64,000 bases of DNA from Schmidtea polychroa. Taxonomy: Eukaryota. The position numbers and the translations under genes are program-made. Below, piece after piece: positions 19,961 through 60,321 of this stretch (the stretch's first letter is position 1; each line of letters starts with the position of its first letter). The stretch lies in the NCBI GenBank assembly GCA_044892525.1, contig CM097885.1, positions 10,356,001-10,420,000 of the forward strand. The letters are read 5' to 3'. Below the pieces are notes generated by a model, which made no database searches, was not told where the DNA came from, and saw only the letters and a list, made by a program, of their open reading frames with translations.

Positions 19961-20310
19961 ATAGGTTTTTGTGTGTCATCACTCGTCATCAAAGTATTCA
20001 TATGACCATAAATTAGTCGTGAATACATCTGACATAAGACCTTCTATCTGTCTTCCAGAACCAGTCAAATATTATCGGGTACTAGTGTTAAGGTAGACAC
20101 TCACCTGCCCTTTAATTTTTTCGCCACTTTTGGGCAGTACCAACCTGATGATTGTCAGGGGCTCTCTGTGTGGACTAGTATAAAGTCATATGCACTTAGA
20201 GACTGAAGTTATAGCTCATTTTTACAACCCAAGCGCCAACACAATTTACATTTTATATTCAAAGTGATATTCTGTCCACTGATCAAAATAGCAATTCACA
20301 AATTTGTAAG

Positions 20311-21276
20311 AGTAGTGTGTATATATCCCTAACCAAAACAGCCCTCCCAACAAATCATGCCTCCATTTCACTTAAACCATTAGAAAAACAACCTAAAACT
20401 TATACTTTTATAGTATTTTAACCCTATATTTTTGAAAACAACCACCCTTAATAGCCCTAACTGTTTTAATCTTTAAAGCCTCATAAACATAAAGAGAATA
20501 GAAAAGAAAATGGCATTATGAAAAAAGTTAGAGGGCTATTTTGGTTAGGGATATATACACACTACTTGAGGCATTGTTTTGATCGTAATCAAACTCCGGA
20601 GTTGATCTTTATCAGATTATTGATTTTAAATTATATAAATTAAAAAATAAATGAAAAAGAATAAAACTGCTCTGAGAGGACAGTGGTATTTTTTTTTCAC
20701 TGTCCTCTCAACAGTTTTTTTGATCCGGATCATTTCAACCTCTTTCGTTTATCAAATTTCTTCCAATATACAAGCTGGCCAGACTCATACATCAGAATCA
20801 ATTCGATAATAGCAGCACACCTTATTATTCGCTTCTCGCTCGAATACGATTTCATCGGCGTTTTAAGCATGCTGCTCGAAAGTACAAATGAATTCGAAAG
20901 CGAATCCGAAAGAGGTCCGAAAACAACTGAGAAATAAATGTGCACATTATAGAATCGATCCTGGGGTGTTCGAAAGACTGGTGGCGATAATTACCGGTTC
21001 GCCATCACACCCGTTTCAATAATTTTTTTTTCATATTTATGTTTAAAAAATAAAATATACAAGATAAAAATAAAATAAAATAAAATAAAAATAAATAAAA
21101 TAAAATATAAATCTAAGATACCCACACTATTATTTTCATATTTTTAATATTATTTTATGTTGAAAAAAAAACTAACCTCAGATGTGATTTGAACCACTAG
21201 CATTTGAACCACTGTGTCAGTCTAGCCCACTGCGCTATTAGACTTTGGATTTTTATTTATAAAATTCTAAAAATTA
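20311..21276 (+). repeat. Polinton left TIR (966 bp)
   Basis: Reverse complement of 31538-32503; about 4 substitutions seen by eye. Confidence 0.95.
21163..21244 (-). ncRNA. Putative tRNA-derived Pol III transcript in left TIR
   Basis: Mirror copy of 31570-31651 (A box, two B-box-like motifs, T9 terminator). Confidence 0.5.
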
Positions 21277-21495
21277 AATAATCGATTCAAGTTCTTTAAC
21301 TCTTTCCTGTAATTGTTTCATTTTCTTTAACCTTATCTCAGCAACTTCTACAGCTTTCATATAAAAATGTCGATACTTTTCATTCTCTACCATCAACTCT
21401 TTGATGTATTCTAATGGTTCTTCTTCTCTTCTTTTCATTCTCTTATGTTTAACTTCATTCAATTCATTTCTCGTTCTTTCAATTAAGTCAGTCAT
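21274..21495 (-). CDS. Small coiled-coil Polinton protein (73 aa)
   Basis: Charged heptad-rich ORF, AAAATG start, divergent from MCP; stop codon at the TIR boundary. Confidence 0.6.
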   Translation of the reverse strand: MTDLIERTRNELNEVKHKRMKRREEEPLEYIKELMVENEKYRHFYMKAVEVAEIRLKKMKQLQERVKELESII

Positions 21496-21541
21496 TTTAT
21501 AAATATTTTTTTATTGGATATATTAATTTTAATATATAAAA

Positions 21542-22834
21542 ATGAATAATATAAATCTTAAAATTCATGAAACAAATAAATTAAATCTTGATTATAATAA
21601 AGAATTTACTCATGTAATTAAAAGAAATTATGTACTTAAAATCTCACCAACTTCAGGATCTATTGCAAACTTAAATCGTAGGGGTGATATAGTTTTTCAA
21701 TCTCTTCAAACATCAAACCCAATAGATATTTGTAATGCTAAATTATATTATAAAATTGAATTAGAAATTGAAGCAAACAAAGATATAACCCTAGAAAATA
21801 ATTTCTTTCCAAATTTATTCTCCAACATGAGATTAAAACTAGGATCATCAGAAATTGAAACTGTTTTACATCCAGGAGTATATTCTACAATGTTAAATTT
21901 TATTTTGACTGGTTGTGATTATAAAAACGAATATGGTGAATTAACAGGTTGGATTCCTGATATTAATAAAGGAGATTTAGATAAAGATGGTTTAGATATA
22001 AATTATGGTTATTATAAAAGAGTTGAACTTTATAAATCTAAAAAATTTGAAGGTTATTTTGAATTAAAACACTTGTTTGGATTCCTTCAAAACTATAATC
22101 GTATACTTCATAATGTTTTTATAGAATTCATCTGTAATAGACTAGAAGGTGATAAAAGATTGTTCTATGGAGACAAGGATACAAAAGCTAAATTAAAATT
22201 ATCAACACTTGAATTGCATATACCTGAATGGACATTAAACCCACATTCTGAAATCAAACTCCTTGAAAGATTAAATTCCAACAAGTCTATAAATGTAAAT
22301 TATTTAAATAGAATCTGTAGTGAATTTAGTATGACAGAGGGTTCAACATATTCTATAAAGGTAGCAAATTTAGCATACCGACCAAGATATATCTTGATTG
22401 GATTCAAAGAAGTAGATTCATCTTTCCAAAAAAATGGCAACTTGTTTATTCAAAAGATTGGAGATGATAATTTAAAAACAATCCAAATTCAATTAAATAG
22501 TTCTTATTATCCAATAAATAGAATGGAATTTAATATTGAAAATAATGAAAACATATTCCCATATCTAAATTATATTGAAACATGTTATGATTTCAAAGTT
22601 GAACCGCAATTAAGTTTAGAAGATTTCAAAAATTTATATTCTATATTTTGTATAAATGTTTCAGACCAAGATGATCGCCTAGCTATAAATAATGTTGATG
22701 TTACACTTCATGTAACAAAGGATTCTAATTTCAAAGCTAAAGTATATACATTAATATTAGAAGAAAAGAAAATAGAAATGAAATTATATGGTGGAAAGAT
22801 TTCAATTATTGAAAATGTTAGGGGAGATTCTTAA
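21542..22834 (+). CDS. Double jelly-roll major capsid protein (Polinton/adintovirus hexon)
   Basis: 430 aa, intact; motifs NNFFPNLFSNMRLKLGSSEIE, LKHLFGFLQNY, RPRYILIGF, QLNSSYYP, FKNLYSIFCINVS typical of Polinton MCPs. Confidence 0.88.
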   Translation: MNNINLKIHETNKLNLDYNKEFTHVIKRNYVLKISPTSGSIANLNRRGDIVFQSLQTSNPIDICNAKLYYKIELEIEANKDITLENNFFPNLFSNMRLKLGSSEIETVLHPGVYSTMLNFILTGCDYKNEYGELTGWIPDINKGDLDKDGLDINYGYYKRVELYKSKKFEGYFELKHLFGFLQNYNRILHNVFIEFICNRLEGDKRLFYGDKDTKAKLKLSTLELHIPEWTLNPHSEIKLLERLNSNKSINVNYLNRICSEFSMTEGSTYSIKVANLAYRPRYILIGFKEVDSSFQKNGNLFIQKIGDDNLKTIQIQLNSSYYPINRMEFNIENNENIFPYLNYIETCYDFKVEPQLSLEDFKNLYSIFCINVSDQDDRLAINNVDVTLHVTKDSNFKAKVYTLILEEKKIEMKLYGGKISIIENVRGDS

Positions 22835-22851
22835 TATTTTAACATTTTAAA

Positions 22852-24226
22852 ATGTCTCTAAATAAACCGTATTGGAGATGTGAAACTTGTAATTGTCAAG
22901 TTACAAAACATCACAAAGCAAGTCATCTAAAAACTAAAAAACATACAGGAGGCGACCTAATTCCACGAGCTGGAGGCGATTTGCAATCTTCAAAAGTAAT
23001 GTCTTCAATATTAAAACCTTTTACTACAGAAAAATATCCAGGTGAAAGACATTTATTTAAACACAACTATACCGGACCAGGAACAAGATTAGATATTAGA
23101 TTAGATGAAAATAATAATCCTAAACAAGGAGAAGAACCAATAAATAGAATTGATCAAGCAGCTTTAAAACATGATATTGCTTACAACTCAGAAGATCTTA
23201 GAGATAGACATGTTGCTGATGTTAATTTAATACATAATTTAAATAATATACAAAATCCATCAACTCAAGAAAAGATTCAAAGAGCTCTAGTTAAATTAGC
23301 AATGAAAGGTAAGATTTTCATAGGCGCAGGACTTCCTATGGGTGCAAGACTTCCTAGGAAAGCAAAAGATGTTGCTAATAAAAAGATCCTCGAACAAGCA
23401 GAGATTGAAAGATCCCTCGAGAATATATCCAAGACTAGTTTATTAACCCCAACAGAATCACAAATAAAATATGCCAACGAATTACACCATGAATTTAGAA
23501 AAAATAAAAAATATTTAAAAGTTCAAGTACATGAAAAAGATCAAACATGGTCTGCTGATTTAGTCTTTATGCCAACCAAATCATCAGACCCTGAAAAATA
23601 TAAAATAATTTTAACTGTAATAGATTTATATACAAGATTTGCCTTTGCAAGGTGTTTAGAAAATAGAACAGGATATTCTATTACAGAAGCATTTGAAAAT
23701 ATATTTGAAGAACATCAAAGAATTCCAAAATATTTATGGAGTGATAAAGGAACAGAATTTTATAACAAAGTTTTTACAAAGTTTTTAAATGAAAATGATA
23801 TTAAATTATATTCAACAGAAAACGAAGGAAAAGCAGTCGTAGTTGAAAGATTAAATAGAACATTAAAAAATAAAATGTGGAAATATTTTACTGCTATTGG
23901 AAAACAAAAATGGAACAATGAATTGTTACAAAAGATTGTAAATGAATATAATAATAAATGCTTCCTTGAATCCTTTGGAACTCATGAATCTTGAAACCAT
24001 TAAAGTGGTAAATGAAAAACCAAAGGTTAAAATTGGTGAACGAGTAAGAATATTTAAATATAAAAATAAATTTGAAAAAGGATTCACAGCAAAATGGACA
24101 AATGAAATTTTTATTATAAATAAAATACATTATACAACTCCAATAACATATAGCATCATTGATTTAAATAATGAAAAAATATTAGGTAGATTTTATAATA
24201 ATGAACTACAGAAAACAGATTTCTAA
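22852..24226 (+). CDS. Zinc finger + parvovirus-type PLA2 + retroviral-like (rve) integrase fusion; C-terminus frameshifted at ~23960-24010
   Basis: CETC...HLKTKKH finger; HNYTGPGT...PINRIDQAALKHDIAY...RHVAD PLA2; DDE in WSADLVFM, LWSDKGTEF, VVERLNRTLK. Polinton integrase tail KIGERVRI...FEKGFTAKWTNEIF...GRFYNNELQK is in the shifted frame (23942-24226). Confidence 0.9.
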
Positions 24227-24237
24227 ATTGACAACCC

Positions 24238-25046
24238 CTAAAATAAACTTTTCCATATTTCAGCTTCTTCTCTATCCAAATAAATATAATTATATTTTTC
24301 TTTCCAATGATTATCAACAAACATATCAAACATATTCTTATCAGGTTCAACATTTGAAAATAAATTATTATAAATCATATTCTTATCACGGCGATCTAAT
24401 TTAAAAAATATAAAACAATTGGAATTATTTCTTATAGAGTTTTTATCTAAAGCATAATAAGTTTGAGATATATAAATAACATTACAATTATTATGTCGAC
24501 CTCGTGTAAAGTAACTCTTTTGAATCTCTTGATTTTTCATGTTGACAACATCATCAAATATAACTAGATTCTTTTTATCTTTAGGAAGTAAATCACAATG
24601 TAAAACATCTTCAGGTTTATTAGAGAATAAAACCTGAATTCCTTCTGCTTGCGCTTGCCCCTGCCCCTGCCCCTCACAGATGTAATCATTTTTATTATTA
24701 ATATCTGATTCTAAAATCTTTTCCTTATACCAATCAACCATATCACAAGGTTGAAAAACTTCTTCGGGACACCTATGTTGATTTTAAAAATATCAATTAT
24801 TGCTTTTTTAGTTAATTTATTTTCAAATCCACATTTCAAAAGTTGTAATTCTGGTTGATTTATGGTTGTAGAATAAAAGATTAAATTATTATAATCTAAA
24901 AAACCATCTTCAAGTAACATTCTCAAAAGAAGTACATTCTTTCCACATCCAGAAGAACCAACAATTAATAATCTAAAATTATCAGGAAATACTTTATTAT
25001 TAAATTTAGATTTATGTCTATTTAAAATTGGTTTCCAAATATCCAT
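24238..25046 (-). pseudogene. A32/FtsK-like packaging ATPase, split by a frameshift at ~24740-24780
   Basis: Walker A LIVGSSGCGKN, Walker B LVIFDD, motif FTRGRHNNCNVIYISQ. Confidence 0.9.
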
Positions 25047-25061
25047 TTTATTTATTATAAA

Positions 25062-25657
25062 ATGACAACTGAAGAATCTTTGCAAGAATTAATAAATTCA
25101 AATAAAAATAAATCAGTTGTAATTGATGGTAAAAATATTTTATTGGAAAACATGTAAAAGAACAAGTAAAAGAACGTATGGGGAGTTCCTCCAAATCCGG
25201 CGGCATTCTTCCATTAGCTGCATTAATACCTGCAATCATTGCCGGACTATCAGGTGCTGCTAGAATAGCTGGAGGAATTGCAACTACAGTTCAAAAAGCT
25301 AAAGAATCTCAAAAGACAGACTTGGAAAAAGAAAAATTACAAACTGAAATCGATTCAATGAAGAAGAGGGGAAAGGGTCTCTATCTTAATCCTTATGAGG
25401 GGAGTTCCTCTCAGGGGACTCTGTCCGAAGGTCAAAAGTCTCAGGGGAGTTCCTCCAAGGGTAAAGCTCTCTATCTTGATCCTTATAAAGGCCGTGGTTT
25501 AAATGATTTTTTAAAAAATCAAATTTCTACATCTGAATCTTTATCTTCAAAAGATAAAGATGATTCAAAAAAAATATGTAAATCTTTAAAGAATGGATGC
25601 CTTTGTAAAACTAAAAATGGTAAAGGATTATACTTGAAGCCCTTCGAACCCCATTGA
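25062..25657 (+). CDS. Virion core/membrane-active protein resembling adenovirus pX precursor (5' frameshift at ~25135)
   Basis: GGILPLAALIPAIIAGLSGAARIAGGIAT plus repeated GKGLYLxPY/F motifs. Confidence 0.65.
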
Positions 25658-25679
25658 TACCATTTTTGATACCATTAAA

Positions 25680-26542
25680 ATGGTATATGAAGAAAGATTA
25701 GCACTTTTAAAAAAATTACAATCAGAACAAAACAAGTATAATAAAAAAGATACAACACAACATGCTGAATCTATAATATTAAATGAGGTAATCCAACATT
25801 AACAGGGGCCAACAATTAAAGCTATAAAAGGATTAAATGAGCAAGCAAAATTTAAAGAGTTGGAATTAAAAGATAAAAAACAAAAATTAAAGAATTGGAG
25901 TGGGAGGATAAAGAAACAGAGCTCACTGAAAGAAATCAAAGAAAACGTAGAAGAACCTCTAATGTGGAAGAAGAAGAAATGATTTTTAAAACAAAACCTC
26001 TTAAACTAGATCCTAAAATTAGAGATGATTTACCTCCTTCAATTAGACCCATATTTAATACTAATACTGAAGGATATACAATAATAACAATTAATAAACA
26101 AAACTTTACTTTATATACAACTCCAGAAAATAAATCACATATTCATTCACAAAATGTTTATAATAATGAATATTTAGACTTTGAATTTACAGATGATTTT
26201 TATAGATTACTTTGTGGATATCCTTCAGATAATAATAAAGAAATTGAAAAATATTTAAATTTAATAAGATTAGTAGGTGGAAGTTCTAAAGCAAAACACA
26301 TTCAAGATTTAAAGAATTATTTAGATAGAAATGAAAAGGGTTATGTTGTTACAGAGGGTAAGGGGATGCCTGCGGAAGGATTGGTTGGAAATCCCATCAA
26401 TCTTTTTATTGAATTAAGAAAACTATTAGCAGCTAAAAAAGCAGGACATAATAATTTAGATTCTGATATTTTAAAGATTTCTAAAGATTTGTTAAAACAA
26501 GGAATAATTTCAAAAGATAAATTTAACAAGTATATAAAATGA
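25680..26542 (+). pseudogene. Conserved Polinton protein (C-terminal LAAKKAGHN...DLLKQGII motif), nonsense codon at ~25800 and frameshift at ~25890
   Basis: AAAATG at 25680, interrupted frame continuing into the 215-aa ORF; C-terminal motif recurrent in Polintons. Confidence 0.6.
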
Positions 26543-26988
26543 CTCCTTCAATATTAGATTTTTTAAAAACATTTGGAATAAATGCAAAAACAAATTTTGA
26601 TTTAAAAGATTATGCAAATTATTTAAATTTAAAAATAAAAATATTAATGAATGATGAATTTTCGAGTCTGAAGGACATTCTGAAAGAAGACAGTCCCCTG
26701 AATATAATAATCAATTATCAAAATTCAAATGAAAAAGGATCTCATTGGGTTTGTATATATAATAAATCTATCTACTTTGATTCTTTTGGGATTAAACCTA
26801 CTAAAGAAGTTGAAGATTATCTCTCGAAGGGTTCCCCAACTTTTAATTCTTTACAAGTTCAACCTAATAATACTAAAATATGTGGTATTTTAAGCTTATA
26901 TGTTTTGTATAGATTGAATAAATCCAAAGGAGAAGGTTTCACTTCCTTAATCCAAGAAATTTATAATAATTTAAAATCTCTATTATAA
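26539..26988 (+). CDS. Adenain-like cysteine maturation protease
   Basis: GSHWVCIY, YFDSFG, QVQ...ICG give His/Asp/Gln/Cys catalytic residues; intact 149 aa. Confidence 0.92.
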   Translation: MTPSILDFLKTFGINAKTNFDLKDYANYLNLKIKILMNDEFSSLKDILKEDSPLNIIINYQNSNEKGSHWVCIYNKSIYFDSFGIKPTKEVEDYLSKGSPTFNSLQVQPNNTKICGILSLYVLYRLNKSKGEGFTSLIQEIYNNLKSLL

Positions 26989-26989
26989 A

Positions 26990-27775
26990 ATGGAGCTTCG
27001 CAACCTTCCGGAAGATTATTTAATAAAAATGGTAAACATAATGTCAGATAAATATTCAAGAAGTTTATTAATAAATTCAAAAGAATCAGACTTTACTATA
27101 AATTTTGAAGATTCAATAAATTTAGATCAAGATTTAAATTATGAATTAGGACTCTTGTGGTTTAGCTGTTTTAATACTATTTTTAATATAAATAATAATA
27201 ATAATAAATTTATTATAGTTAAGAGTGATATTTCATCCAAAGATCCTTTTTCAGTTATTAAATCTAATATTATAACAATCGAACCAGGATCATATGAAAT
27301 AGCAGATTTAGCTAAAACAATTCTAAAAGAAACAAATGGAGAAGTAGAAATAAAAGCAGATATTCAAACTTCAAAATGTATTACAACTTTAAAAAATGTT
27401 GCACTTACTGTTACTAAATCCAGTTTCTTTCATACTATTTTAGGTTTTGAAGCTAGAGCTTATGGCACCAACCATTCACCTATTAAATCTAAAAATATTA
27501 TACAATTAACAAATACAAATTCTATAAATATAGAGTGTGATTGTATAATGGGATCATACATTAATGGTAAACATGCAAATATTTTATATTCCATTCCTTC
27601 TAATACCGTGCGAGTTGGATATAAAATGGTTGAAAGAATGAATCCCCCAAATTATTTACCTTTATGCAGAAAAAATATAATGGATATTAGTTTTAGAATT
27701 GTTGATGAAAATGGGGAATTAATTAATTTTAATGGAGAAAAGATTTCAATGTATTTACATTTGAAACAAGTCTAG
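26990..27775 (+). CDS. Minor capsid protein (penton, single jelly-roll)
   Basis: YELGL, IEPGSYEI, LGF, INIECDCIMGSYINGKHANILYS, PNYLPL, FRIVDENGELINFNGE motifs; intact 261 aa. Confidence 0.88.
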   Translation: MELRNLPEDYLIKMVNIMSDKYSRSLLINSKESDFTINFEDSINLDQDLNYELGLLWFSCFNTIFNINNNNNKFIIVKSDISSKDPFSVIKSNIITIEPGSYEIADLAKTILKETNGEVEIKADIQTSKCITTLKNVALTVTKSSFFHTILGFEARAYGTNHSPIKSKNIIQLTNTNSINIECDCIMGSYINGKHANILYSIPSNTVRVGYKMVERMNPPNYLPLCRKNIMDISFRIVDENGELINFNGEKISMYLHLKQV

Positions 27776-27804
27776 AGGAACTTCTAAGGATTTTTTACTA
27801 TAAA

Positions 27805-28805
27805 ATGAATTATGCTAATTATAATAAGTTGGGATTATATAATGATGGATTAAAAGATGAAGATGTTATATCTCTTACAGAAAAGAGATATGTTAATGAA
27901 AGAGGTGATTCAATGAAAGGAGATTTAAATTTAAATGGACACAAGATAAAAGATTTATCTTTACCAACTGATGATTCTGATGCTGCTAATAAAAAATATG
28001 TAGATGGTGTTAAAAATTATACTGATTTAACAACAACAAGAATTGAAAGTTCATTAACAATAAAGCTTAATAATATCGAACAACGATTTAATGATAAATT
28101 TGACAAGTTACAAAGTCTGTTAACTGAACAAGTTGTAAAGTTAAATACTAGTATATTAAATTCTAAAGATAAACGAATTATGAATAATAAATTTAATACA
28201 ATATATAATATAATAAATGAGATGATTACATCATTTAATAAAAGACTTTCAAATTTAGAGTCTCATACAACACATATTAACACAACACACAGTATTAGAA
28301 AAAGAGCTGCTGAATTAGAACAGAATAAAACATTATTACCCCATACATATAAACATTTTATAGAACCAACTTTAATAACAACAAATAGTAAAGAATGGAG
28401 TGTTTTTATGGTTGTAAAGATTATTGATCCTTATTTCTATTTATTTGATGATGATGGTGAAAGAATGAAATGGTTTGCGAAATGTGATTATAATAGTGAG
28501 TTTGAAAGGGTGATGTTATAATTACTGGTTATGATTTACCACACAGACAATGGCATGATAAAACTCATTCTGATACCACACATAAAACTAAAAGTAAGAA
28601 TATTATTTTTAAAAGCACACTTGTAAGTTATATAGATTTAATATTTTATGAAAAAAAGGTTGATGTTGATGAAGTTCGTAAAGCGTTGAGAGAATTGTAT
28701 AAAGATATTCTCTCAACACGAGGTTCTTATGAAATGCGAGTATTGGTACTATTGGAATCAGATAGTACTTCCAGTCAGAGGGTTAAAGTCTTGTTGAGAG
28801 TTTAA
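27805..28805 (+). CDS. Fibre/spike-like protein (frameshift at ~28500)
   Basis: GDSMKGDLNLNGHKIKDLSLPTDDSDAANKKYVD fibre-type repeat, then a long coiled coil; another frame continues to ~28805. Confidence 0.6.
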
Positions 28806-28825
28806 TTATTTTTTTAATTATTAAA

Positions 28826-29371
28826 ATGGAAGTAAGAGAAGAAAAAATTTACCCAGAATTGAGATCATCAGGATATTATTCCCCCAAGGCCTCAGCTCCC
28901 ACAGAACTTGAAATTATGAGAGTGAAAGAATTTAAATCAGAAACCTTACATTTACAAGATTTATTAAAGCATTATAAAAAAATTAAAAATAGATGGAATA
29001 AAGGGAATACAGTTTTAAAAGTTATAGGTTATTCTTTAGGATTTGCATCTGCAATATTAACAGTTATTTTACCTATAACTTTACCGGTTGTTACTCTTGC
29101 GCCTGTAATACTTGGAAGTATTTCTGTAGCTGATGGTTTCTTAACTGAAATAGTTTCACTATCTTATACTTCTAAAAAGAAAAGTTTATATAGAGAAGTT
29201 TGTTTATCAATAGAATTAGGAATCTCTAAATTATTTTTATTTCAATTAAAAGCTTTGGAAGATGGAATCTTAACTGATGATGAAATAATGAAATCAAATC
29301 AAATAATACAAGATATTAAAAATAATATTAATAGATTGAAAAGTGCTAATGTTATAACTAATGAATTATAA
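28826..29371 (+). CDS. Two-hydrophobic-helix Polinton membrane protein (possibly the family annotated GasderminX)
   Basis: N-terminal IYPEL, KHYKK, hydrophobic hairpin VIGYSLGFASAILTVILPITLPVVTLAPVILGSISV, C-terminal KALEDGILTDDE. Confidence 0.6.
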   Translation: MEVREEKIYPELRSSGYYSPKASAPTELEIMRVKEFKSETLHLQDLLKHYKKIKNRWNKGNTVLKVIGYSLGFASAILTVILPITLPVVTLAPVILGSISVADGFLTEIVSLSYTSKKKSLYREVCLSIELGISKLFLFQLKALEDGILTDDEIMKSNQIIQDIKNNINRLKSANVITNEL

Positions 29372-29374
29372 CTA

Positions 29375-31459
29375 CTGATTTATATTTTTCCTTTGTAAGT
29401 CCTATAACTTTGAAAGAGTTTTTAGCATTTTCTGCTAATTGTTTAATAAATAGATGTATGTCATAACCAAAAAGATTATGAAATATAACAGGTACAAATT
29501 TAGGAGTATAACAATTAATATTGCAATTTTTATGAGCTGCTCCTCGATAATTATTTTCCTTTTTTAAATGATCATGATCGGGGACTTTTATATTTTTCGA
29601 AGATTGTAGTTGTCTTTCATGAAACATTCTTTGTTCTTCTTCTTCAATAGTTTCATTATTCGGAGACTGTATTTAAAGACTCTTCAAGGAGTTGATCCTC
29701 AAACGGTTGTTTACACATCCAACAATTTGAAGAATTTTCATATTCTTCCCATTGTTCGGTTGAAAAATTTATTTCATATTTTGTTTCTAATACTTTAAAT
29801 ATTTTATGTTCTAGATCATTTATACTTTTGGTAAAATGATTTAAAACATCTTCTGAAATTCCTTGAAATGTATATTCTCTAGATTCTATGAGTTCAGGAT
29901 AATTACTTTTAAATAATAATTTATAAGCAGATGGTAATTGTTTAGTTTTTTTTAACACTATTAGGTTTATTTCTTTTTCTTAGAAAGGCTTTCATCCTCT
30001 CTGGTTTCATCTTCTCTCCTGAGGAGTTCCATGAATCCATGAGTTTATTTTATTCTATTATTTTTAAATATTGATTAACCAAATCTTGTTTACGATTTAT
30101 AGATTCAAAGTCTCCATAAATCACTCCTACTGTTTGTAGTAAATTTGAAAAGTTTTTAAAATTCATCTTGGGATCTTTAGGCATGTTAATTAAAGCTGGT
30201 TCATCTTTTTCACAAAATCTTGTATGTTTAATCATAGAGTTTTTAGTTGTTGAATAATGAAGACATCTTTTACATGTTCCTCCTCCACTAGTTGGATTCT
30301 CTGGTGATGTAAAAGCTTGAAAGTTTTTTATTAAAATATAATGTTGATTATTTTGTTGTTCCAAGATTAAAAGATATATTTCTCTAGGGTTTTCTGTTCC
30401 ACTATCAGAAATGTAAATTGGAATAATTTCTCTGCTATTAACATGTTTCCCTTTAACACATTCATAAATATTAATTTTAAGATTATTTAATTTTTCAAAT
30501 TCCGGAATGTCTTCGAGTTTCATTGGATGTTTGAATCCTTTGGGAAATATTAATTCATTTTCACATTGTTTGTATTTTGAAACTCTTTGAGGGTTTGATT
30601 CTAGAGGATGTAAATGTTTAAGTATTGACCAGATGAAACATTTGTTATCATTATTCTGTATGTTTATAACATTTTTAGATTTAAAGGGTGTAGGAATATA
30701 AGATTTAGGATTAGGTGGTAATCCTCTCCAATAATCAATCACTAAAGTTTGGAAAGAGTTGAATACTAAGTTTGAATCTCCTAATTCATTTTCTACTTCC
30801 TCTTGTTTTGCTTCTGCTGCTTTAATTATTTCTTTGATGGTTTTATCAAATCCTTTAGTTGAAAATAAATATTTAAAGGGTATTCCAATTTCAACATCTA
30901 AAGGTGTTGTCTTTTCTTCTGCTCCTCGCCAGTATTTTGCTTTGATTATAATCTTATATTTTATAACATTATACCTTGTCGGTTTATAATTTTTTAAAGC
31001 TTCAGTGAAAGAATTTTTAATATTTTTTTTATTTTTATTTATATATTCTCCAGGAGTTGCAGGTCCATTAATTTTTAATTGAAATTCATCTATATGATTA
31101 AAATTATCACAGTTATATTTTTCTCTTTCAACATGATCAGGTTCTCCTTCTGAATGACATTCCTCATCGTCAGAATTTTGTTTTTTATTTTAACATTCTT
31201 TTATATGTTCTAAATAATAGAAATTTAGTTTTGTTGGAAAGTTACAATGAGGACATGTAAATATTTCTCTATTTTTCCCAATACAATTTTCAAAATGTTT
31301 ATTATATCCAGAATGTAGAAATCTTCCTTTACATTTAGGACAAAGTTTTGAATTTCTATCATTAAGATTATTTTCTTTTAATAAATGAGCTTTCGATTTT
31401 AAATGAGAAATTAATCCAGTTTTATTTTTAAAAACTTTATTACAAATATTACAATTCAT
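29375..31459 (-). pseudogene. Protein-primed family B DNA polymerase, N-terminal half only (ZnF, terminal-protein region, OTU-like, exonuclease with EndoVII/HNH insert)
   Basis: C2H2 fingers; INIQNNDNKCFIWS...HYILIK; VIYGDFES (Exo I); CWMC...DHDH...YRGAAHKNCN; HNLFGYDIH (Exo II). Stops at 31190 and 30050 plus frameshifts; ends abruptly after KEKYKS with no palm motifs. Confidence 0.9.
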
Positions 31460-31537
31460 TTTTAGAAAAAAACTTTTTATTGGATACCCTGTTTTCATTT
31501 TTTATGTTTTTATATTCATTTTCATAATGTGACAGTC

Positions 31538-32503
31538 TAATTTTTAGAATTTTATAAATAAAAATCCAAAGTCTAATAGCGCAGTGGGCTAGACTGACAC
31601 AGTGGTTCAAATGCTAGTGGTTCAAATCACATCTGAGGTTAGTTTTTTTTTCAACATAAAATAATATTAAAAATATGAAAATAATAGTGTGGGTATCTTA
31701 GATTTATATTTTATTTTATTTATTTTTATTTTATTTTATTTTATTTTTATCTTGTATATTTTATTTTTTAAACATAAATATGAAAAAAAAATTATTGAAA
31801 CGGGTGTGATGGCGAACCGGTAATTATCGCCACCAGTCTTTCGAACACCCCCGGATCGATTCTATAATGTGCACATTTATTTCTCAGTTGTTTTCGGACC
31901 TCTTTCGGATTCATTTTCGAATTCATTTGTACTTTCGAGCAGCATGCTTAAAACGCCGATGAAATCGTATTCGAGCGAGAAGCGAATAATAAGGTGTGCT
32001 GCTATTATCGAATTGATTCTGATGTATGAGTCTGGCCAGCTTGTATATTGGAAGAGATTTGATAAACGAAAGAGGTTGAAATGATCCGGATCAAAAAAAC
32101 TGTTGAGAGGACAGTGAAAAAAAAATACCACTGTCCTCTCAGAGCAGTTTTATTCTTTTTCATTTATTTTTTAATTTATATAATTTAAAATCAATAATCT
32201 GATAAAGATCAACTCCGGAGTTTGATTACGATCAAAACAATGCCTCAAGTAGTGTGTATATATCCCTAACCAAAATAGCCCTCTAACTTTTTTCATAATG
32301 CCATTTTCTTTTCTATTCTCTTTATGTTTATGAGGCTTTAAAGATTAAAACAGTTAGGGCTATTAAGGGTGGTTGTTTTCAAAAATATAGGGTTAAAATA
32401 CTATAAAAGTATAAGTTTTAGGTTGTTTTTCTAATGGTTTAAGTGAAATGGAGGCATGATTTGTTGGGAGGGCTGTTTTGGTTAGGGATATATACACACT
32501 ACT
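31538..32503 (-). repeat. Polinton right TIR (966 bp)
   Basis: Reverse complement of 20311-21276. Confidence 0.95.
31570..31651 (+). ncRNA. Putative tRNA-derived Pol III transcript in right TIR
   Basis: A box TAGCGCAGTGG (31577), GGTTCAAATGC (31604) and GGTTCAAATCA (31619), T9 run at 31643-31651. Confidence 0.5.
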
Positions 32504-32712
32504 TGTAAGAATTTATAAAAATATTTCTGAAATGTTTTCTTGGATAAATTGATAAAAAAAAATATTTTTTGCCCATTCATATTTCCTATATGCAAATAAA
32601 TGGAATTTTTGGAAAATGTGCTTTTCTAGTTTCAAATGTAATATATTAAACTATTATTGGATTTGTATTGTTTAAATATTCATAATTTATTAAATTTTGT
32701 GAAATCTTTTAA

Positions 32713-39049: not shown

Positions 39050-40520
39050 ATGTTTTCAAGCGTATGGGAAATAATGAAGAGAAATAAATTTGAATTTGAT
39101 AATGAAATCAGCAGTGAATTGATATGCACAATTTGCAAATGTTTAATGATAAAAGCTTGCAATGCTCCTTGTGGTTGTCGCTTTTGTTCTGATTGCATTG
39201 AGCATTATTTGGATGGAAAAGATAAATTCTGTCCAGGAGCAGCAAAATATTGTCAAGTTCAAACGATTCTTTTCACTACAGATGTTTCTGTTGATCATGC
39301 AGCCAATTTAAAAATATCTGAAGTTATTGTAAAATGCCCAATGCAAAATTGTGAATTGAAAACCGAGTTGTGCATGATGGAGAGCCACATGAGAACATGC
39401 AACAAGCAACCAATAAAATGTCCGTTCAATAGAATTGGATGCGAAATGAATGAGGTGGAGAAGGACGAAATGAAAGTCCATCTCAATGAGAACAATGAAA
39501 GCCATAGCAAATTATTGATCGATCAGATCAGTAATTTATGTAATGAGATGCAATCAATGAGAGATGATAATGTGAGATTGCGCAACGAAATTATCCAATT
39601 GAAAGGAGAAATGACGCAATTCAAACAACAATTTGATAATTTCAATGTAAATTTTATTTGTAATTAATTTATTGATATTTGTAATTGAAGGTAAAACTGT
39701 GCAATGTTGAAAGGAAAGAGGCGGAGAACAGAGATGAAATAGAAGCATTGAATGAGGAAATGGTTGCATTGAAGAATGAGAATCGCTCATTGAGAATGGA
39801 GATGGAGATAAATATTGGATCAATCAATCAAGTTTGATTATTGATTTGATTTTTTATTGATTTGTTATTGATGCAAAGCAGATCAGACAGCAAATTGAGG
39901 TGATTGAATCAAAATGTCAACAGCAAATTGATGAGATGAAAGAGAAAAGCGAGCAGCGGCTGCAACAGGAGAATGAAAAGGTGATTTATTGATTATTTGA
40001 AATATTTGAATTTGAGATTCAGTTGCAGCTTGAAATGGCGAAATGCGCTAATGAAATTCGGCAGAATGAAACAAAATTAGCAAATGAAAAATATATAAAT
40101 TACGGATTTTTTGAATGGGAAATCGATAAATTTTCACAACTAAAGAGAGATGAAAGGACTTACAGCAAGTCATTTTATTCCGGGCCAATCGGTTACAAAA
40201 TGTGCTTGTGGGTGTGGATTGAGGGTAATTGGGTTTGGGCTGGTTTCTGTTTCATGCGTGAACCAAATGATGAGCAATTGGATTGGCCGTTCAAACAATC
40301 TGTGACAATCGATGTGATCGATCCAGCAAATGGCAGCATTTATATGAGCAAGTCAATGAAATATTCAGATTGCCCTCTTGATGATGCCGGATGGAGGAAA
40401 CCGTCAAATGACAGGAATAATGCAATTGCCATTTATAATGGTCCCGAAGCCAGCTCAATATATAAATTAGCAGCCAAAAGTGATAAATTGCTGATCAGGT
40501 GCAGAATTGAAAAATTATGA
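39050..40520 (+). CDS. TRAF: TNF receptor-associated factor family protein (RING, TRAF zinc finger, coiled coil, MATH); 4 exons ~39050-39646, 39691-39831, 39882-39980, 40023-40520
   Basis: CTIC...CGCRFCSDC RING; CPFNRIGC...H TRAF finger; MATH motifs FEWEI, SKSFYSGPIGYKMCL, DEQLDWPF; short GT-AG introns keep the frame. Confidence 0.92.
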
Positions 40521-40599: not shown

Positions 40600-41054
40600 T
40601 CAAGACCACGACTCGTCAGATGACTCATCAGGGTAAAAAAAAATTTTCAAGGTCATTTCAACTCATCAAGGCCATTTTCAAGGTCATATGACTCGTCAAA
40701 GTCATTCTCAAGGTCATCTGAGTCATCCTATGACTCATCAACATTTTTTCAAGGTCATTTGACTCATACTATGACTTATCAAAAATTTTTCAAGGTCATC
40801 TGAGTCGTCATATGACTCATCAAGGTCATTTTCAAGGTCGCATGACTCATCCAAGGCCATTCTCAAGGTCATATGACTCATCCGAGAAGTCATCAAGGTC
40901 ATATTATTACTTTTAAAAAATATTATTATTTTATTTTTAATTTTTTCAAAGTTCCCGTCAACGAAAATTAATAATCGATAGCTTATTTTAAAGCTCAATC
41001 CAAGACCTTTCGAATGAGCTATATTATTGTTATTACGATTATTATTTCTAAAGA

Positions 41055-41095
<41 letters not shown>

Positions 41096-42196
41096 GTATT
41101 AATCTATATACTCCGAATCTATCCGACAAAATATTTTGTCCCCCTATGGGTAATGCTCACAATGGTACTGGTCACGCTCAACAACTCGCAAATCAGCAAA
41201 TCAACAAAACATACATTTATTTAAACAATAAAATAATGTAAAATTAACAAAGGTACTACTATTCGCAGCAATATTGTTTGAAAACAAACGGCAATACAAA
41301 AGTACTCATCGATCACTCATTTATTTTTTGAACAAAGACAATGACGCGCCCATGGGATATATTATTTATTACTATCAATAGTATTATTATTATTAATATT
41401 AATATTATTATTATTATTATTATCATCAAGTTTTAATTACCAAGGTAATTTAAACAAAGACCATGACTCAGTCGCTGTATCATCAAGGTCGTTCTATTTT
41501 TAGTAACAAAGACATCTATTTTTAGTAACATTTTGAATATATTTTTAGTAACATTTTTGATTTTAGTTTTTTTGGTTTAATTATCGATTACGCAATAATT
41601 TAATTTATCATTATTATTGGGAAAGATATTAACGCCCGCGCGGAAGATGTTATTTACAAAATTATTATTTTCAAAGTTTTAATCAATATTATTATTATTA
41701 TTATTTCCAAAGTTATTTTGAAAGTTTTTATGAAAATTCTTCTTCTTATTATTATTATTATAATTTGCAAATATTCATAAAACCTAATTTCTACGTCCAT
41801 TTCATGCTTTTCAGCATTTTCATGATTATTTCCGGAACATTTTCATCAAATATTTTTCAAAGTATTATTTTCAAAGAATTATTTTCAAAGAATTATTATT
41901 ATTATTTTTTATTATTATTATTTTTATTATTATTTGCAAAGTTCTAATTATTATTTTAATTTAGAAGTTTCATTATTATTATTTACTTAAATATTCATAA
42001 AACTTAATTTCTACGTCAATTACATGATTTTCAACATTTTCATCATTTGCATGATTATTTTAATAATTTTCAACATTTTCAATATTTTCACGATTTTCAA
42101 CATTTTCATGATTATTTCAGGAACTTTTCATCGAATATTTTTCAAAGTATTATTTTCAAAGATTTATTTTCAAATTATTTTCAAAGTTTTTATCAA

Positions 42197-42263
<67 letters not shown>

Positions 42264-45200
42264 GGTAAAGAAAAATCTAAAATATGGTTTACACGCACAA
42301 CCCATTTTAGATTAAGATTTTTTATCAAATTTGTGATAATTTGACTGATTCAATTTGATAGAGTTATTGTTAATTCGTTTTATTATATATATACTCTGAG
42401 TTTATCCGACAACATATTTTCTCCCTCTATGGGTACTGCTTGTAAGGGTATTGGTCGTAAGGGTACTGGTCGTAAAGGTACTGTTGTGTTTTAATGATTT
42501 TATTTAGGCAAATTTTTGGTTATTATTTGGCATTAAATTCATTGGTAATTTTTTAGAGTTAGCGGGATTTTACTAACATTTTTTGTGAATTTCATGTTAA
42601 TTGAAAGAATATTTAAAAATTTAAGGTTTAGTGTTAATTCTAAGATAAATTTAATTAATTTCTTGATAATTTGCTATATTTTATTGACTTTTTTTAAATT
42701 TTAAATAAAAATTAATTTTTAATGTTAATAATCAAGTGATAGGATAAATTTGATGATGATGACTTTGTAATGATATTGATTTTGACTAATTAATTTTTTC
42801 ATATATTTTTCTAAGAATATTTACACATTGATGAACTTTAAAATATTGAAAATCTAAAGTTGAAACCAGATAATTTTTTCACGATGATGATATATTTGAA
42901 ATTTACTTGAAAATTATTGTAAAATATACCGAAATTTAGTTTGAAAGATATATCATGTTATAATGGTTATAATTAGTTGAATCGATGAAGAATTATGATC
43001 AATCAATGAGATATTATCATCTCTAGTTAGGTATTTGATGATACATGTGATTAAATATTTATTTTAATGAATTTTGATCTTTTAGTGAACTCTTTGAATT
43101 TAGCTACTAAATTATTTCAATGGAAGAATGTTTTTAACAATTAAATCTCTATTTAAATCGACAATGTTCTTATTGGTAAAATATCAAATTTTCAAAGGAA
43201 ATAGTCAGTATTTAGCTATGAATTAATAATAATTCCAGTGAACTTATATCGTTTTAGAGGTTTATTAGGTCGTGATGAATGTTATTGCACAGTAATTTAG
43301 ATTTATGTTTTAGAACAAGTTTTTATTAATTATCCACTGTTTTATTAAGTCGTTTAGGGTTAATGATCTATTTACTTGGTTTTGACAATGAAATGTTTGA
43401 AATCTTTAGAGATAATTGATATCAAAGGTTATTTCTTTAAATTAGTTTATTTAAGAAGTTATTTTATTCATTGTGAGGATATCAGTGAAGGAAATTTATG
43501 ATTTTAATTAGATTTCTAGAAATTAAATCGGTTAAATATCAGTTAATCTATTGAAGGAATATTGTTATCGGATGGATAAATGATATTTTGCTAAATTACC
43601 TTTGCTAAATATTATTTTAAGTGACTAAAAATAACAAAATTAACCAATATTCATAAATTTTTCCCACAAAATATCCATGTTTTGGTTACTCAAACATCTG
43701 AAATTTCTCGCAAAGATATATTACGTCTAATGATCATCTAATTAAATTAGAAAAGAAATATAACCCTATATGAACATGTATTTTTAACTAATAAGCACCT
43801 TATTTGGTTAAATGATAACCATATTTCTATTATGACTCCTTTAAATATTTTTGCCTCGAACAAATTTACTCCAAATGATAAAGAATTTAAAATTATCAAT
43901 GAATAATGACCATGTTTTTCTCATATTAATAACTATTGTAACGAACATTAGATGAATAAATTACCTTTTGCTTTAAATGTCAAAAAGGTTAACCAATAAA
44001 TTAGTCGCTCGACATAAGTGTAAAGTTACATTTAAAATATTCACGAATTTCTGATCATCTCACTAAATTACCTAAGAATTTCTAAATGATTATTATACCC
44101 TTGCGACATGTTGAATGTGACCAGTACCCTTACGACCAATACCCATAGGGGGACAGAATATTTTGCCGGATGAACTCGGAGTATATGGTCTTTATTGATA
44201 TATCAAAATACTGTTATTTATAAATTAACTAAAAAATACTATATTATTTTACTGAATGATAACTTAAATGTTTTTAATATACCTATTTCTAAAGTAAATC
44301 GACAGCTCAGACCAACAACATGTATGGATGACCACCCATTGTTAATTTATTTCCAGTGTCACGTCCCTCAAAAATACCGTGAGTGTTTTAACAAAACTGA
44401 GCTCAAAGAAACTTTCCAGATAACAACTCACCTGAATGTTTTGAACAAAAATGATCGAAATTGAGAACAAACGATTAGATGGCGATTAACTTCTGGCCAC
44501 AACCCTAACAACATGAAAATTAAGATTTAATTATTGAATTCGTTGTTTTCTGCCTGGAAATACTAACAGAATATTTTTTAATTCAAAGAATCTTCATTAT
44601 AAATTTTTGAATTTAAAAAATTAAATGAAGGATATATAAGTGTACATAAAATTATAATATTATATAAAATTATACTGTATTTATTAATAAATTTAGAATA
44701 CATAAAATTATAATATTATAATATTATATAAAATTATACTATATAATAATATTAATGTTTAAATATGCTTAAATAACTAAATTGTTTAAATATTTTTAAA
44801 TAACTAAATTTAAATTATTTAAATAAACTTTTCATATAACTTTATTTCTTTCGTTTTAGTATCCATAAAGTAAGTATATAAAGAATTTACTACAATATTT
44901 TAATTATTTTACTTAGTAATGAAGAAAATGAATTATATAATTATGAAGAAGATGAATAGTGAAACACTAAAAGACTTATGTTCTGGATTTAGAGATTTCT
45001 TATTAAAACATGAATTATTGGATTATGGGGAAGATGACCAGACAAAATGGTGAAACACTAAAGGAGTTATAGTTCCGGATTTCTTAAATGAATTAGCTGA
45101 TTGTGGGTGTCCTTCAACATGAATGTTTACTTATCAGACTTAAATTATGTAAACTTTCAACGAATGTCAAAAAAATGGGAAAAATCGATGTTTTAGCAAT

Positions 45201-46787
45201 TAAGTAAAGTACTCGTCATACCTGAAGAATATTATTATTAATGTAAGACATGAATTAATTCTTTAAAATATATATATATATTATATTTAGGTATCTGTGT
45301 TTTATGGTGGGAAATGACATGGAAAAAGTATACCACAAATAACAGTTGACTAATTTATCAAGCCTGTGACGATAAAATGTTAGATAATGTAAGTTAATTG
45401 CTTTTAAATCAATATAAATTTTAGCAATGATAGTTGACGCCGCATCAGAAACTAAGAAATACGTCCAATTTGCAAGATGTATTCCAAATGGCCCGATGGA
45501 GATGATAATTTTGAGATAGATTACCAGCAGAAGAGCGAGAAAAATTTGTAAATTAAATATAAAAGGGTTGGGTGGGTCCTCTTTATCCCTTAATTAATAT
45601 ATATTTACAAGCTGATCGTCGTGGTGGGCGGTTGTAATCCAACTAGTGGGAGGCCTCTGTAAATATATATTGTTGTTAGTGAAAACATTAATTAATTTGG
45701 TTATAGTGCCAATGACGCATGTATTTTGAAATTATACGTTTCGAATGTACTGGTAGTTGACTACCCATGTTAGGCGTAATGTTCCGTACGGAAAACTATA
45801 ATGCCCAGGTTCTTTTGACCCCACTTGGGGAAGGCACAGACGACCCTTGTGGACGCGAACAAATATCCACCGTGTCTTTCAGGCACAGATATTTGGTCAC
45901 TGCTCATTAGACCTGGCAATACTAAATGCATAAACTTTGCCTTGTCCTCTCTTGTCTTGATTTTTATAGTTTAAATAATTATTAAAAATAGTATGTGTGA
46001 TAAGTTTTATTTACTAACCTTAATTAATTTACCCTTGCGACATGTTGAGTGTGAGTAGTACCCTTGTGAGCAATACCCATAGGGAGACAGAATATCTTGT
46101 CGGATAGACTAGGAGTATATACATCCATTTTAAAAAGGTATGTGTATATAGAATGTATGTATAAAATTATCACTCCTTATTGACAATTTCCTGTAAAGGC
46201 AAACACAGAATACTGCAAACATATAATAATTCTCTACCCCATAACTTAGTGTGTAAAAATTATTTTAAGTTTTTGACTAATTATAATAATAATAATAATA
46301 ATAATAAAGTTCAAAGGGTTGTATATGTGTGTAGAAAATATTTTAGGTTTTCACTAATATTGATAATAATTGTTAATGGGTTGTGTGTGTGTGTAAAAAT
46401 ATTTTATGTTTTTAATATTGATAATAATAATAATAATGGTTGATGGGTTGTGCGTGTAAACCATATTTTAGATTTTTCTTTACCAATAATAATAATAATA
46501 ATAATATTAATAATAATAATAATAATATTGATAAAAAACACAACAGTACCTTTACGACCAGTACCCTTACGACCAATACCCTTACAAGCAGTACCCATAG
46601 AGGGAGAAAATATGTTGTCGGATAAACTCAGAGTATATATATAATAAAACGAATTAACAATAACTCTATCAAATTGAATCAGTCAAATTATCACAAATTT
46701 GATAAAAAATCTTAATCTAAAATGGGTTGTGCGTGTAAACCATATTTTAGATTTTTCTTTACCAATAATAATAATAATAATAATAAT

Positions 46788-46827
<40 letters not shown>

Positions 46828-49025
46828 TTGATAAAAACTTTGAAAATAATTTGAAAATAAATCTTTGAAAATAATACTTTGAAAAATATTCGATGAAAAG
46901 TTCCTGAAATAATCATGAAAATGTTGAAAATCGTGAAAATATTGAAAATGTTGAAAATTATTAAAATAATCATGCAAATGATGAAAATGTTGAAAATCAT
47001 GTAATTGACGTAGAAATTAAGTTTTATGAATATTTAAGTAAATAATAATAATGAAACTTCTAAATTAAAATAATAATTAGAACTTTGCAAATAATAATAA
47101 AAATAATAATAATAAAAAATAATAATAATTCTTTGAAAATAATTCTTTGAAAATAATACTTTGAAAAATATTTGATGAAAATGTTCCTGAAATAATCATG
47201 AAAATGCTGAAAAGCAAGAAATGGTCGTAGAAATTAGGTTTTATGAATATTTGCAAATTATAATAATAATAATAAGAAGAAGAATTTTCATAAAAACTTT
47301 CAAAATAACTTTGGAAATAATAATAATAATATTGATTAAAACTTTGAAAATAATAATTTTGTAAATAACATCTTCCGCGCGGGCGTTAATATCTTTCCCA
47401 ATAATAATGATAAATTAAATTATTGCGTAATCGATAATTAAACAAAAAAAACTAATATAATCAACGATTTAAACAAAATTAAATTATTACATAATTGATA
47501 ATTTAAACAAAAATATTATTGCATAATCAACGATTTAAACAAAATTAAGGTATTAAGTAATCGATAATTAAAATAAAAATATTATCATACAATCAACGAT
47601 TTAAACAAAATTAAATTATTACATAATTGATAATTAAAACAAAAAAAATATTATTATATAATTAACGATTTAAACAATATTAAATTATTAAGTAATCGAT
47701 AATTAAAAAAAAAATATTAAGTAATCGATAATTAAAACCAAAATAAAAATATTATCATATAATCAACGATTTAAACAAAACTAAAATAAAATAATAATAT
47801 GACCTTGAAATAATAATATTTTGAAAAATAATAATATGACCTTGAAAATAATAATATAACCTTGAAAATAATAATATTTTGAAAAATAATAATATGACCT
47901 TGAAAATAATAATATGACCTTGAAAAATAATAATATGACCTTGAAAAATATAATAATATTTTGAAAAATAATAATATGACCTTGAAAATAATAATATTTT
48001 GAAAAATAATAATATGACCTTGAAAATAATAATATTTTGAAAAATAATAATATGACCTTGAAAATAATAATATTTTGAAAAATAATAATATGACCTTGAA
48101 AATAATGAAGTTATAATAATAATATTAATACCCTTGCGACATGTTGAATGTGACCAGTACCCTATCTACAAATACACATAGGGGGACACAATATTTTGTC
48201 GGATAAACTCGGACTATATAATTATAATAATAATAAAAATAATATTGATTAAAACTTCGAAAATAATAATTTTGAAAATAACATTTTCCGCGCGAGCGGT
48301 AATATCTTTCCCAATAATAATGATAAATTAAATTATTACGTAATCGATAATTAAATCAAAAAATATTACATAATCAACGATTTAAACAAAATTAAATTAT
48401 TGAGTAATCGATAATTAAAACAAAACATGTTATTATTACATAATCAACGATTTAAACAAAATTAAATTATTACGTATTCGATAATTAAAACAAAAATAAA
48501 CCGCTGGAACAAAAATAGATGTCTTTGTTACTAAAAATAGAATGACCTTGGCGAGTCATCGGATCAATGATCGGATCAAAAATGTTACTAAAAATAGATG
48601 TCTTTGTTACTAAAAATAGAACGACCTTGATGATTCAGCGACTGAGTCATGGTCTTTGTTTAAATTACCTTGGTAATTAAAACTTGATGATAATAATAAT
48701 AATATTAATAATAATAATAATACTATTGATAGTAATAAATAATATATCCCATGGGCGCGTCATTGTCTTTGTTCAAAAAATAAATGAGTCATCGATGAGT
48801 ACTTTTGTATTGCCGTTTGTTTTCAAACAATATTGCTGCGAATAGTAGTACATCAATATTTAGTTTACCTTTGTTAATTTTACATTATTTTATTGTTTAA
48901 ATAAATGTATGTTTTGTTGATTTGCTGATTTGCGAGTTGTTGAGCGTGACCAGTACCATTGTGAGCATTACCCATAGGGGGACAAAATATTTTGTCGGAT
49001 AGATTCGGAGTATATAGATTAATAC

Positions 49026-49063
<38 letters not shown>

Positions 49064-60290: not shown

Positions 60291-60321
60291 CTTTTATATT
60301 TTCAATATCTTTACTATCTAT

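Follow-up and report, generated by a model that had tools for sequence, protein, structure and literature searches.

Putative tRNA-derived Pol III units in the terminal inverted repeats of a Polinton family and units of similar geometry in the host rDNA spacer

Polintons are related to adenoviruses, in whose genomes the VA RNA genes are centrally located, and are regarded as elements that encode proteins only; the way in which they escape elimination by piRNA/RNAi control is an open question. In a planarian, Polintons have been reported to be direct PIWI targets (PMC8532177). VA RNAs are described as stably folded dsRNA mimics of ~160 nt with a terminal stem, a central domain and an apical stem (PMC7589676), and MHV68 is reported to carry near its genome end a cluster of tRNA-like Pol III genes, the TMERs, that give rise to non-functional tRNAs (PMC4337559). 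On the host side, tRNA genes have been described as heterochromatin barriers and nucleosome-free sites (10.1101/412247).

Here we analyze a stretch of 64,000 nucleotides of the Schmidtea polychroa genome (the window), which contains a Polinton with, in both terminal inverted repeats (TIRs), a putative tRNA-derived unit (unit A) and a larger candidate RNA gene (unit G; Table 1). As far as the sources cited describe them, VA RNAI and VA RNAII resemble unit A in their internal A and B boxes, oligo-U end, tandem genes and proposed tRNA origin, but they are strongly folded with conserved GGGU/ACCC pairing, whereas unit A is about half as long, unfolded and situated in the TIRs (PMC7589676). The vtRNAs of MHV68 keep an RNase Z-processed tRNA fold that unit A has lost, while the TMER layout, in which hairpins with weak internal terminators come after a tRNA head, fits unit G, although G is longer (~360 nt vs. 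~200 nt for TMER1), is carried by an integrated Polinton and is a candidate RNA known from sequence (PMC4337559). BocaSR of bocavirus, a virus whose linear DNA has hairpin ends, is, like unit A, a Pol III type-2 unit and is encoded in terminal non-coding sequence, but it is a single structured RNA of 140 nt with a replication role, whereas the Polinton possesses a multi-unit array (PMC11194592). The tRNAs of Polinton-like viruses and virophages also represent tRNA-derived sequence in a Polinton-class element, but these are detectable with Rfam and ARAGORN and are read as codon support, whereas unit A is undetectable in this way and cannot fold as a tRNA (PMC12220804, whose supplementary text files, as searched, contained no relevant rows). 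tDNA/TFIIIC barrier insulators consist of A/B-box DNA acting via occupancy, as proposed below for unit A, but they are host genes, whereas unit A is mobile cargo and its barrier is putative (10.1101/412247). Helenus/Cassandra TRIMp3 and tRNA-derived SINEs likewise have a tRNA-derived Pol III promoter in the terminal repeat of a mobile element; in these retroelements the promoter makes the transposition intermediate, whereas the Polinton is a DNA element with an outward-directed unit and a T run ~90 nt on (PMC10886601).

A literature search of titles and abstracts, with most subscription journals outside its scope, yielded no description of such a Pol III arrangement in a Polinton, nor of an rDNA spacer array of the type reported below. 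Unit A is real and conserved, and units of this kind would be a variant form of viral or mobile Pol III units. A Polinton Pol III module would extend the range of viral Pol III RNAs (VA, EBER, TMER, BocaSR) to the Polinton branch.

Structure of the Polinton and signals of unit A

The element of 12.2 kb was assigned to the Polintons/Mavericks on the basis of its long TIRs, its true ends AGTAGT (at 20311) and ACTACT (at 32503), a 6-bp target site duplication (TGTAAG; 20305-20310 and 32504-32509), an integrase, a packaging ATPase and a DJR capsid; AGTAGT is what we take to be the Polinton/Maverick terminal motif. The raw inverted repeat extends over 982 nt (20295-21276 paired with 31538-32519), and the TIRs themselves differ at 4 of 966 positions. 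Their palindromic ends are bounded by AGTAGT...ACTACT, and this fold-back layout is kept in sister subfamilies, in which the internal sequences and lengths of the palindromic ends differ. The genes of this copy are split or partial. A protein-primed DNA polymerase B was found in this copy neither by Pfam nor by tblastn with the polymerase-like ORF of a relative, and the ORFs at 29358-30523 presumably contain N-terminal exonuclease-like motifs only. This Polinton belongs to a very large family that has thousands of genomic copies; a capsid search of the own genome gave 98 scored matches with 96-97% identity among 3231 candidates, and when distant capsids were used as queries they matched only this Polinton family.

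Table 1. Coordinates of the Polinton, its genes and its terminal units in the 64-kb window.
Feature	Position	Strand	Basis or remark
Polinton/Maverick (adintovirus-like) element	20311..32503	.	AGTAGT...ACTACT termini, TSD, Pfam genes
Left TIR, 966 nt	20311..21276	.	Inverted-repeat comparison
Right TIR	31538..32503	.	Inverted-repeat comparison
Terminal 256-nt palindromic TIR segment	32248..32503, mirror 20311-20566	.	Sequence comparison
Unit A, putative degenerate tRNA-derived type-2 Pol III unit	31560..31651	+	Boxes, spacing, conservation
Unit A, mirror copy in left TIR	21163..21254	-	Sequence match
Unit A, A box TAGCGCAGTGG	31577-31587	+	Sequence
Unit A, inner B-like motif without the conserved C	31602..31612	+	Absent from paralogues B, C, D
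Unit A, B box GGTTCAAATC	31619..31629	+	43 nt from A-box T
Unit A, T9 terminator	31643..31651	+	23 nt after G53
Unit G, candidate ~360-nt Pol III RNA gene	31800..32160	+	Boxes, fold, copy comparison
Unit G, mirror copy in left TIR	20654..21014	-	Sequence match
Unit G, A-box-like motif	31810-31820	+	44 nt before B-box-like motif
Unit G, B-box-like motif with atypical GATCGA loop	31853-31863	+	Sequence
Unit G, predicted hairpin, 61 nt, pre-miRNA-sized	~32005-32065	+	Fold prediction
Unit G, predicted terminal hairpin, then T4 and T5 runs	~32103-32142	+	Fold prediction
73-aa ORF, ends just upstream of left unit A	21274..21495	-	ORF list
Site of ~490-bp C-B cassette in most sampled sister copies; empty in this copy	21520..21535	.	
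Double jelly-roll major capsid protein	21542..22834	+	PF21738
PLA2-like domain and retroviral-type integrase	22852..23994	+	PF08398, PF00665
A32-like packaging ATPase, two ORFs	24238..25046	-	PF04665
C2H2 zinc-finger ORF, in head-to-head orientation relative to right unit A	31190..31498	-	Pfam

The start of unit A is 32 nt from the inner edge of the TIR (31538); the unit points outward and has a tRNA-equivalent body at 31570-31642. A preliminary description of this locus had reported an A box, a duplicated B-box-like motif and a T9 run in both TIRs, and all coordinates proved exact, including the mirror copy at 21163-21244, in which the mirrored boxes and T run lie at 21163-21237. Both copies of the duplicated motif, AGTGGTTCAAAT, are indeed present (31601-31612 and 31617-31628), but only the downstream one is a full B box, the upstream copy being a partial duplicate. 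This inner B-like motif overlaps a second A-box-like motif in most unit A copies; in sister copies, at ~31595-31605, a second perfect A-box-like motif is fused to it, 25-26 nt from the true B box, with one change in the copy studied here.

As a yardstick for these signals we used the A-box/B-box consensus and tRNA-like spacing. Unit A shows sequence features of a type-2 Pol III gene, i.e., a tRNA-like A/B spacing (43 nt vs. 44-45 nt in host tRNAs) and an oligo-T stretch past the B box. If the usual tRNA-gene geometry applies, as we assume, the predicted primary transcript would start near 31560 and have a length of about 85-90 nt, compared to the ~75-80 nt suggested earlier. A regular expression for A box, B box and T run matched exactly two sites in the 64-kb window, both of them unit A, compared to a mean of 0.04 and a maximum of 1 in 50 block-shuffled windows. 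In the right TIR the A box is 79 nt from the ATG of the zinc-finger ORF, and on the left the mRNA of the 73-aa ORF could run through unit A. Judged from sequence, the interpretation of unit A as a tRNA-derived type-2 Pol III unit that is fixed in the Polinton family appears supported.

Distribution, conservation and fold of unit A

The core of unit A has 2633 exact matches in the genome, against none for the reversed pattern. All 30 best matches examined (of 40 scored) and all of the first 30 by position lie in Polinton ends, which argues that unit A is not a free SINE; a free tRNA-derived SINE with its own TSD and tail was, therefore, rejected. The grounds on which the preliminary description would have been abandoned, i.e., a common SINE, presence in this copy only, or boxes that are not conserved, thus all fail in view of the 2633 matches in Polinton ends and the invariant boxes. 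Among left ends selected by capsid similarity (20 of the 98 matches), unit A occurs in 20 out of 20, and two further units, B and C, which sit between the capsid gene and the TIR, in 14 each; some Polinton copies, including this one, have a capsid gene without an adjoining unit. Unit A is present in one to three tandem copies per end, with a period of about 231 nt. A sister subfamily (capsid ~80-87% identical) harbors the further paralogues A', D and E and an older B, and units are present at both ends in the two subfamilies.

A shared variant was found at none of the 13 core box positions, which were taken from the known consensus, compared to 27 of the 60 other positions (Fisher p=0.0012, a value that is optimistic because the copies are related); 118 of 119 copies were kept for this comparison, with anchoring on the downstream flank rather than on the boxes. 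When one natural copy of each of the six paralogue types is compared, the boxes are 73-100% identical but the middles only 13-52% (87% for the A'-E pair). The A-to-B spacing is 43-45 nt in 112 of the 121 typed distinct sequences (A 58/60, A' 12/16, B 20/22, C 12/12, D 8/8, E 2/3), a count that leaves out 46 rows, nearly all representing the inner A-like motif of A units, and in which types B to E were partly identified via the box regular expression. The distance from the B box to the T run is mostly 21-23 nt across types, and a terminator of T6-9 is present in all of them. However, when the TIR in the window is compared with 25 TIRs of the sister subfamily, the boxes show identities of 0.80 and 0.82 and the flank a median of 0.80, i.e., the boxes are no more conserved than their surroundings.

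No unit was detected in 20 right ends of the sister family that have another TIR, nor in 18 stretches around other putative Polinton types, where one loose match lacked tRNA spacing. A capsid search gave 41 homologues. Among metagenomic relatives, 36 loci (92 kb, many too short to include ends) contained no unit; no distant relatives were found in IMG/VR, and a 14-mer scan of viral contigs gave matches at chance level. In one distant metagenomic Polinton, whose capsid is 36% identical, a lone B-box with a 16-nt match to a unit-A variant lies between two convergent genes; it is accompanied by neither an A box nor a T run and is possibly due to chance. Since degenerate units of this type are invisible to ARAGORN and Rfam, those of other Polintons may have been missed.

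The earlier statement that no full cloverleaf is evident was borne out, as ARAGORN predicted no genes in the window and Rfam gave no match over the unit at E<=10. The stems are broken across the units (1-5 of 7 acceptor pairs; 2 of 5 T-stem pairs in A, A', D and E), and a tRNA gene was, therefore, rejected as an explanation. Predicted folding of unit A is at the level of shuffled sequences (z -0.19); the z values of A, A', C, D and E lie between -0.5 and +1.5, and a search for common base pairs over nine representative units yielded none, which also led us to reject a conserved fold. Paralogue B scores 32.4 bits as a tRNA, above the cut-off of 29; its likeness to host tRNA-Cys resides in the 5' half, and overall it matches Cys at 46 of 72 positions but Lys at 47 of 73. 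Outside its boxes unit A is 30-43% identical to host tRNA-Cys, -Lys and -Arg, and the copy in the window is closer to B (55-59%), an order that is reversed for another A variant. The proposed resemblance of the 3' part to tRNA-Trp and an origin from this tRNA were not supported, since this segment differs among subfamilies; the host tRNAs compared were Cys, Lys and Arg, and among the first 100 of 1859 matches only Cys was listed. The host tRNA genes themselves form long single-species tandem arrays with periods (Lys 424 bp, Arg 278 bp, Cys 281 bp, and 253 bp for one more, intron-bearing, array) close to the period of 231-243 bp observed for the units of Polinton and spacer.

In a sequencing run from the same organism that is presumed, by guess, to be RNA, 35 contigs covered 31545-31665. 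Word depth of unit-A contigs is high (670 for one) and decreases across the T run (707, then 219, then 160), but these contigs show neither ends, strand nor polymerase, and the 3' end of an mRNA would explain them just as well. One contig has a poly(A) end at 31661, 10 nt past T9, which is possibly the 3' end of the mRNA of the 73-aa ORF or a polyadenylated read-through product. The apparent start at 31560 carries no weight, because variants in the length of an A run can cause a graph branch. Three runs of other organisms contained no unit-A contigs, which is no proof of absence.

The folded unit G and the rDNA spacer array

The A-box-like motif of unit G lies 233 nt further out than the A box of unit A, and G was found downstream of A in 29 of 30 position-ordered loci. 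The predicted fold of 31795-32146, which in addition to its hairpins (Table 1) holds nested long helices, has an energy of -115.6 kcal/mol (z -5.36; none of 100 shuffles as good); for 14 sampled copies out of 98 distinct ones z ranges from -3.8 to -11.4, and in 8 out of 8 copies it is the sense strand, not the antisense strand, that gives the better fold. With the structure of the window copy as reference, 97% of the cells are paired across 44 of the 98 G copies. Covariation support for this fold is mixed. Double changes occur in 36 cells, compared to 8.4 in shuffles and 8-16 in slid controls, including an A-U to G-C swap in the last hairpin of 15 copies and a re-lettered helix in two copies. 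However, the number of double-changed pairs (8) is not above the slid controls (6-8), further pair types fall below the shuffles, and the structure that RNAalifold itself derived lacks the terminal hairpin and has a covariation term of just -0.05. An internal T4, present in 40 of the 44 copies, could give rise to shorter G products. Rfam contained no VA match for A or G. The layout of G is TMER-like, with a tRNA-like head, stable hairpins and a terminator, and its predicted fold makes G, rather than unit A, the better candidate for a VA/TMER-like RNA. The VA-RNA analogy that had been drawn for unit A is not supported, in view of its z of -0.19 and of paralogues without common base pairs; of the two units in the module, unit A is the one less similar to a VA RNA.

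Units B and C connect the Polinton with the rDNA of its host. The unit B pattern has 3134 matches in the genome; of the first 25, 19 are in Polinton ends and six elsewhere. These six point to a junction that has 733 matches, a large number of them in 12-14-kb tandem arrays that were identified with Rfam as rDNA. The intergenic spacer contains degenerate tRNA-like, Pol III-type units in the order F, C and one to four copies of B, with a period of ~240 bp; their geometry is that of the Polinton units, and they are positioned ~2.9-3.8 kb upstream of the 18S gene on the opposite strand. This F-C-B array is missing from two sampled rDNA spacers. The C-B cassettes of the Polinton are 95-99.6% identical to the host rDNA spacer (17 loci) and the older B is 88-90% identical to it (2 loci). 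Since these rDNA-like cassettes differ in extent and insertion place between the two subfamilies, and no other Polinton sequence was found in the rDNA spacer, repeated capture from the rDNA is favored, and transfer from the rDNA spacer to the Polinton is, from this sequence comparison, the likely direction. Units A and G, on the other hand, are both absent from 20 rDNA stretches, and comparison of the unit A spacer with the rDNA-spacer repeats revealed no homology (no pair above z 2.6). The spacer array and the Polinton cassettes expose sequence traffic between rDNA and a virus-like transposon. Some Polinton copies are inserted in rDNA-containing regions, and in one of these a diverged pair of B-type repeats (82%) is located immediately upstream of the 18S gene.

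Possible roles of the terminal units

We tentatively favor the explanation, to which we would give slightly less than an even chance, that unit A is kept as a TFIIIC-bound, Pol III-transcribed promoter-terminator that opens the end of the element and fences off G. Host TFIIIC would bind the boxes of unit A and load TFIIIB and Pol III, and the unit would be transcribed into a short unstructured RNA. Occupied and nucleosome-free, it may form a local barrier against silencing as well as a terminator between the inner genes and G, and G may supply the RNA product that matters, in the manner of TMER, EBER or VA RNAs. The element may enlarge its array both by tandem duplication of A and by uptake of equivalent rDNA-spacer units. 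A role via occupancy and transcription is favored because sequence and fold have drifted whereas the signals, the length and the terminator have been retained, and because the number of copies can vary and foreign units with this geometry have been added; a variable number of units and the presence of unrelated rDNA-spacer units with equal geometry are to be expected if occupancy, and not the sequence of the RNA, matters. Of the functions suggested earlier, an insulator or TFIIIC site, therefore, fits best. A pure TFIIIC barrier, however, would need neither the terminator nor the transcript length that are conserved. Also counting against the favored explanation are the boxes, which between subfamilies are no more conserved than the flank, and the lack of units in other Polinton ends and relatives, by which such units are not general to Polintons. 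A reading in terms of occupancy alone is further challenged by MHV68, where a single tRNA-like RNA is reported to be functional on its own (PMC4337559).

A more far-reaching version is that the Polinton encodes a Pol III small-RNA module in both TIRs, in which unit A would open and fence off the end, while unit G would give rise to a TMER/VA-like RNA of ~360 nt with a 61-nt hairpin that either is processed or saturates the Dicer/PIWI silencing of the host, and in which the Pol III-type boundary array of the rDNA spacer is repeatedly stolen as reinforcement. We consider this version doubtful in its entirety; if true, A and G would be the first non-coding RNA system directed against silencing to be described in a Polinton, and such a module would be a plausible reason for the expansion to thousands of copies.

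Rather unlikely, in our view, is the alternative that the unstructured tRNA-like RNA of ~85-90 nt, made in abundance as in the vtRNA module of MHV68, is itself the product and soaks up La, tRNA-processing or RNA-sensing proteins. It would account for the T6-9 terminator and the tRNA-length spacing that are kept in all types, and it agrees with the greater divergence of the C-B middle (z 0.3) than of the C-B spacer (z 5.0) and with the report that one vtRNA is enough for a viral phenotype (PMC4337559). That neither fold nor internal sequence is conserved argues against it, as does the interchangeability of the units with rDNA-spacer units, of which the host already has hundreds of copies. The unit-A contigs in the putative RNA run, with their high depth that drops across the T run, also fit a discrete product, but contigs do not reveal ends, and polyadenylation 10 nt beyond the T run speaks for an mRNA.

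Unit A could also be a neutral hitchhiker, i.e., an old captured fragment of a tRNA or of the rDNA spacer that was duplicated by unequal exchange, which we judge to be unlikely. Accidental capture would be easy for Polinton copies that sit inside rDNA-containing regions, the element can do without the C-B cassette, and both the equal conservation of boxes and TIR flank between subfamilies and the lack of the unit in other Polinton ends and relatives are as expected for neutral cargo. It is, however, difficult to see why in such a fragment variation affects 45% of the other positions but none of those in the box cores, why the spacing is kept across types whose middles have near-random identity, and why the unit is found at both ends in two subfamilies with capsids that are ~80-87% identical.

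Improbable is a function in terminal DNA metabolism (replication start, fork pausing, or nucleolar/condensin tethering) by mimicry of the rDNA spacer. The terminal position beside palindromic ends, the repeated uptake of rDNA-spacer DNA and the support of viral DNA replication reported for BocaSR, a terminal Pol III RNA of bocavirus (PMC11194592), would agree with such a function, but other Polinton ends in the genome do without the units. That unit A itself is a VA-RNA-like double-stranded decoy or small-RNA precursor, as its type-2 promoter and terminator, its tandem arrangement and its residence in a virus-like element might suggest, is very improbable, since it folds no better than shuffled sequence, shares no pairs with its paralogues, has half the length of a VA RNA and no long stems, and the folded candidate is G.

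Elsewhere in the window, a second, nested inverted-repeat structure at 40902-49216 has arms of 150-370 nt that are 93-100% complementary, with AT-rich subrepeats. Pieces of host genes with ORFs for a TRAF-type zinc finger and a MATH domain occur at 39050-40520, and the region 58899-62021 contains a hAT dimerisation fragment together with RT, RNase H and integrase fragments of LTR retrotransposons.
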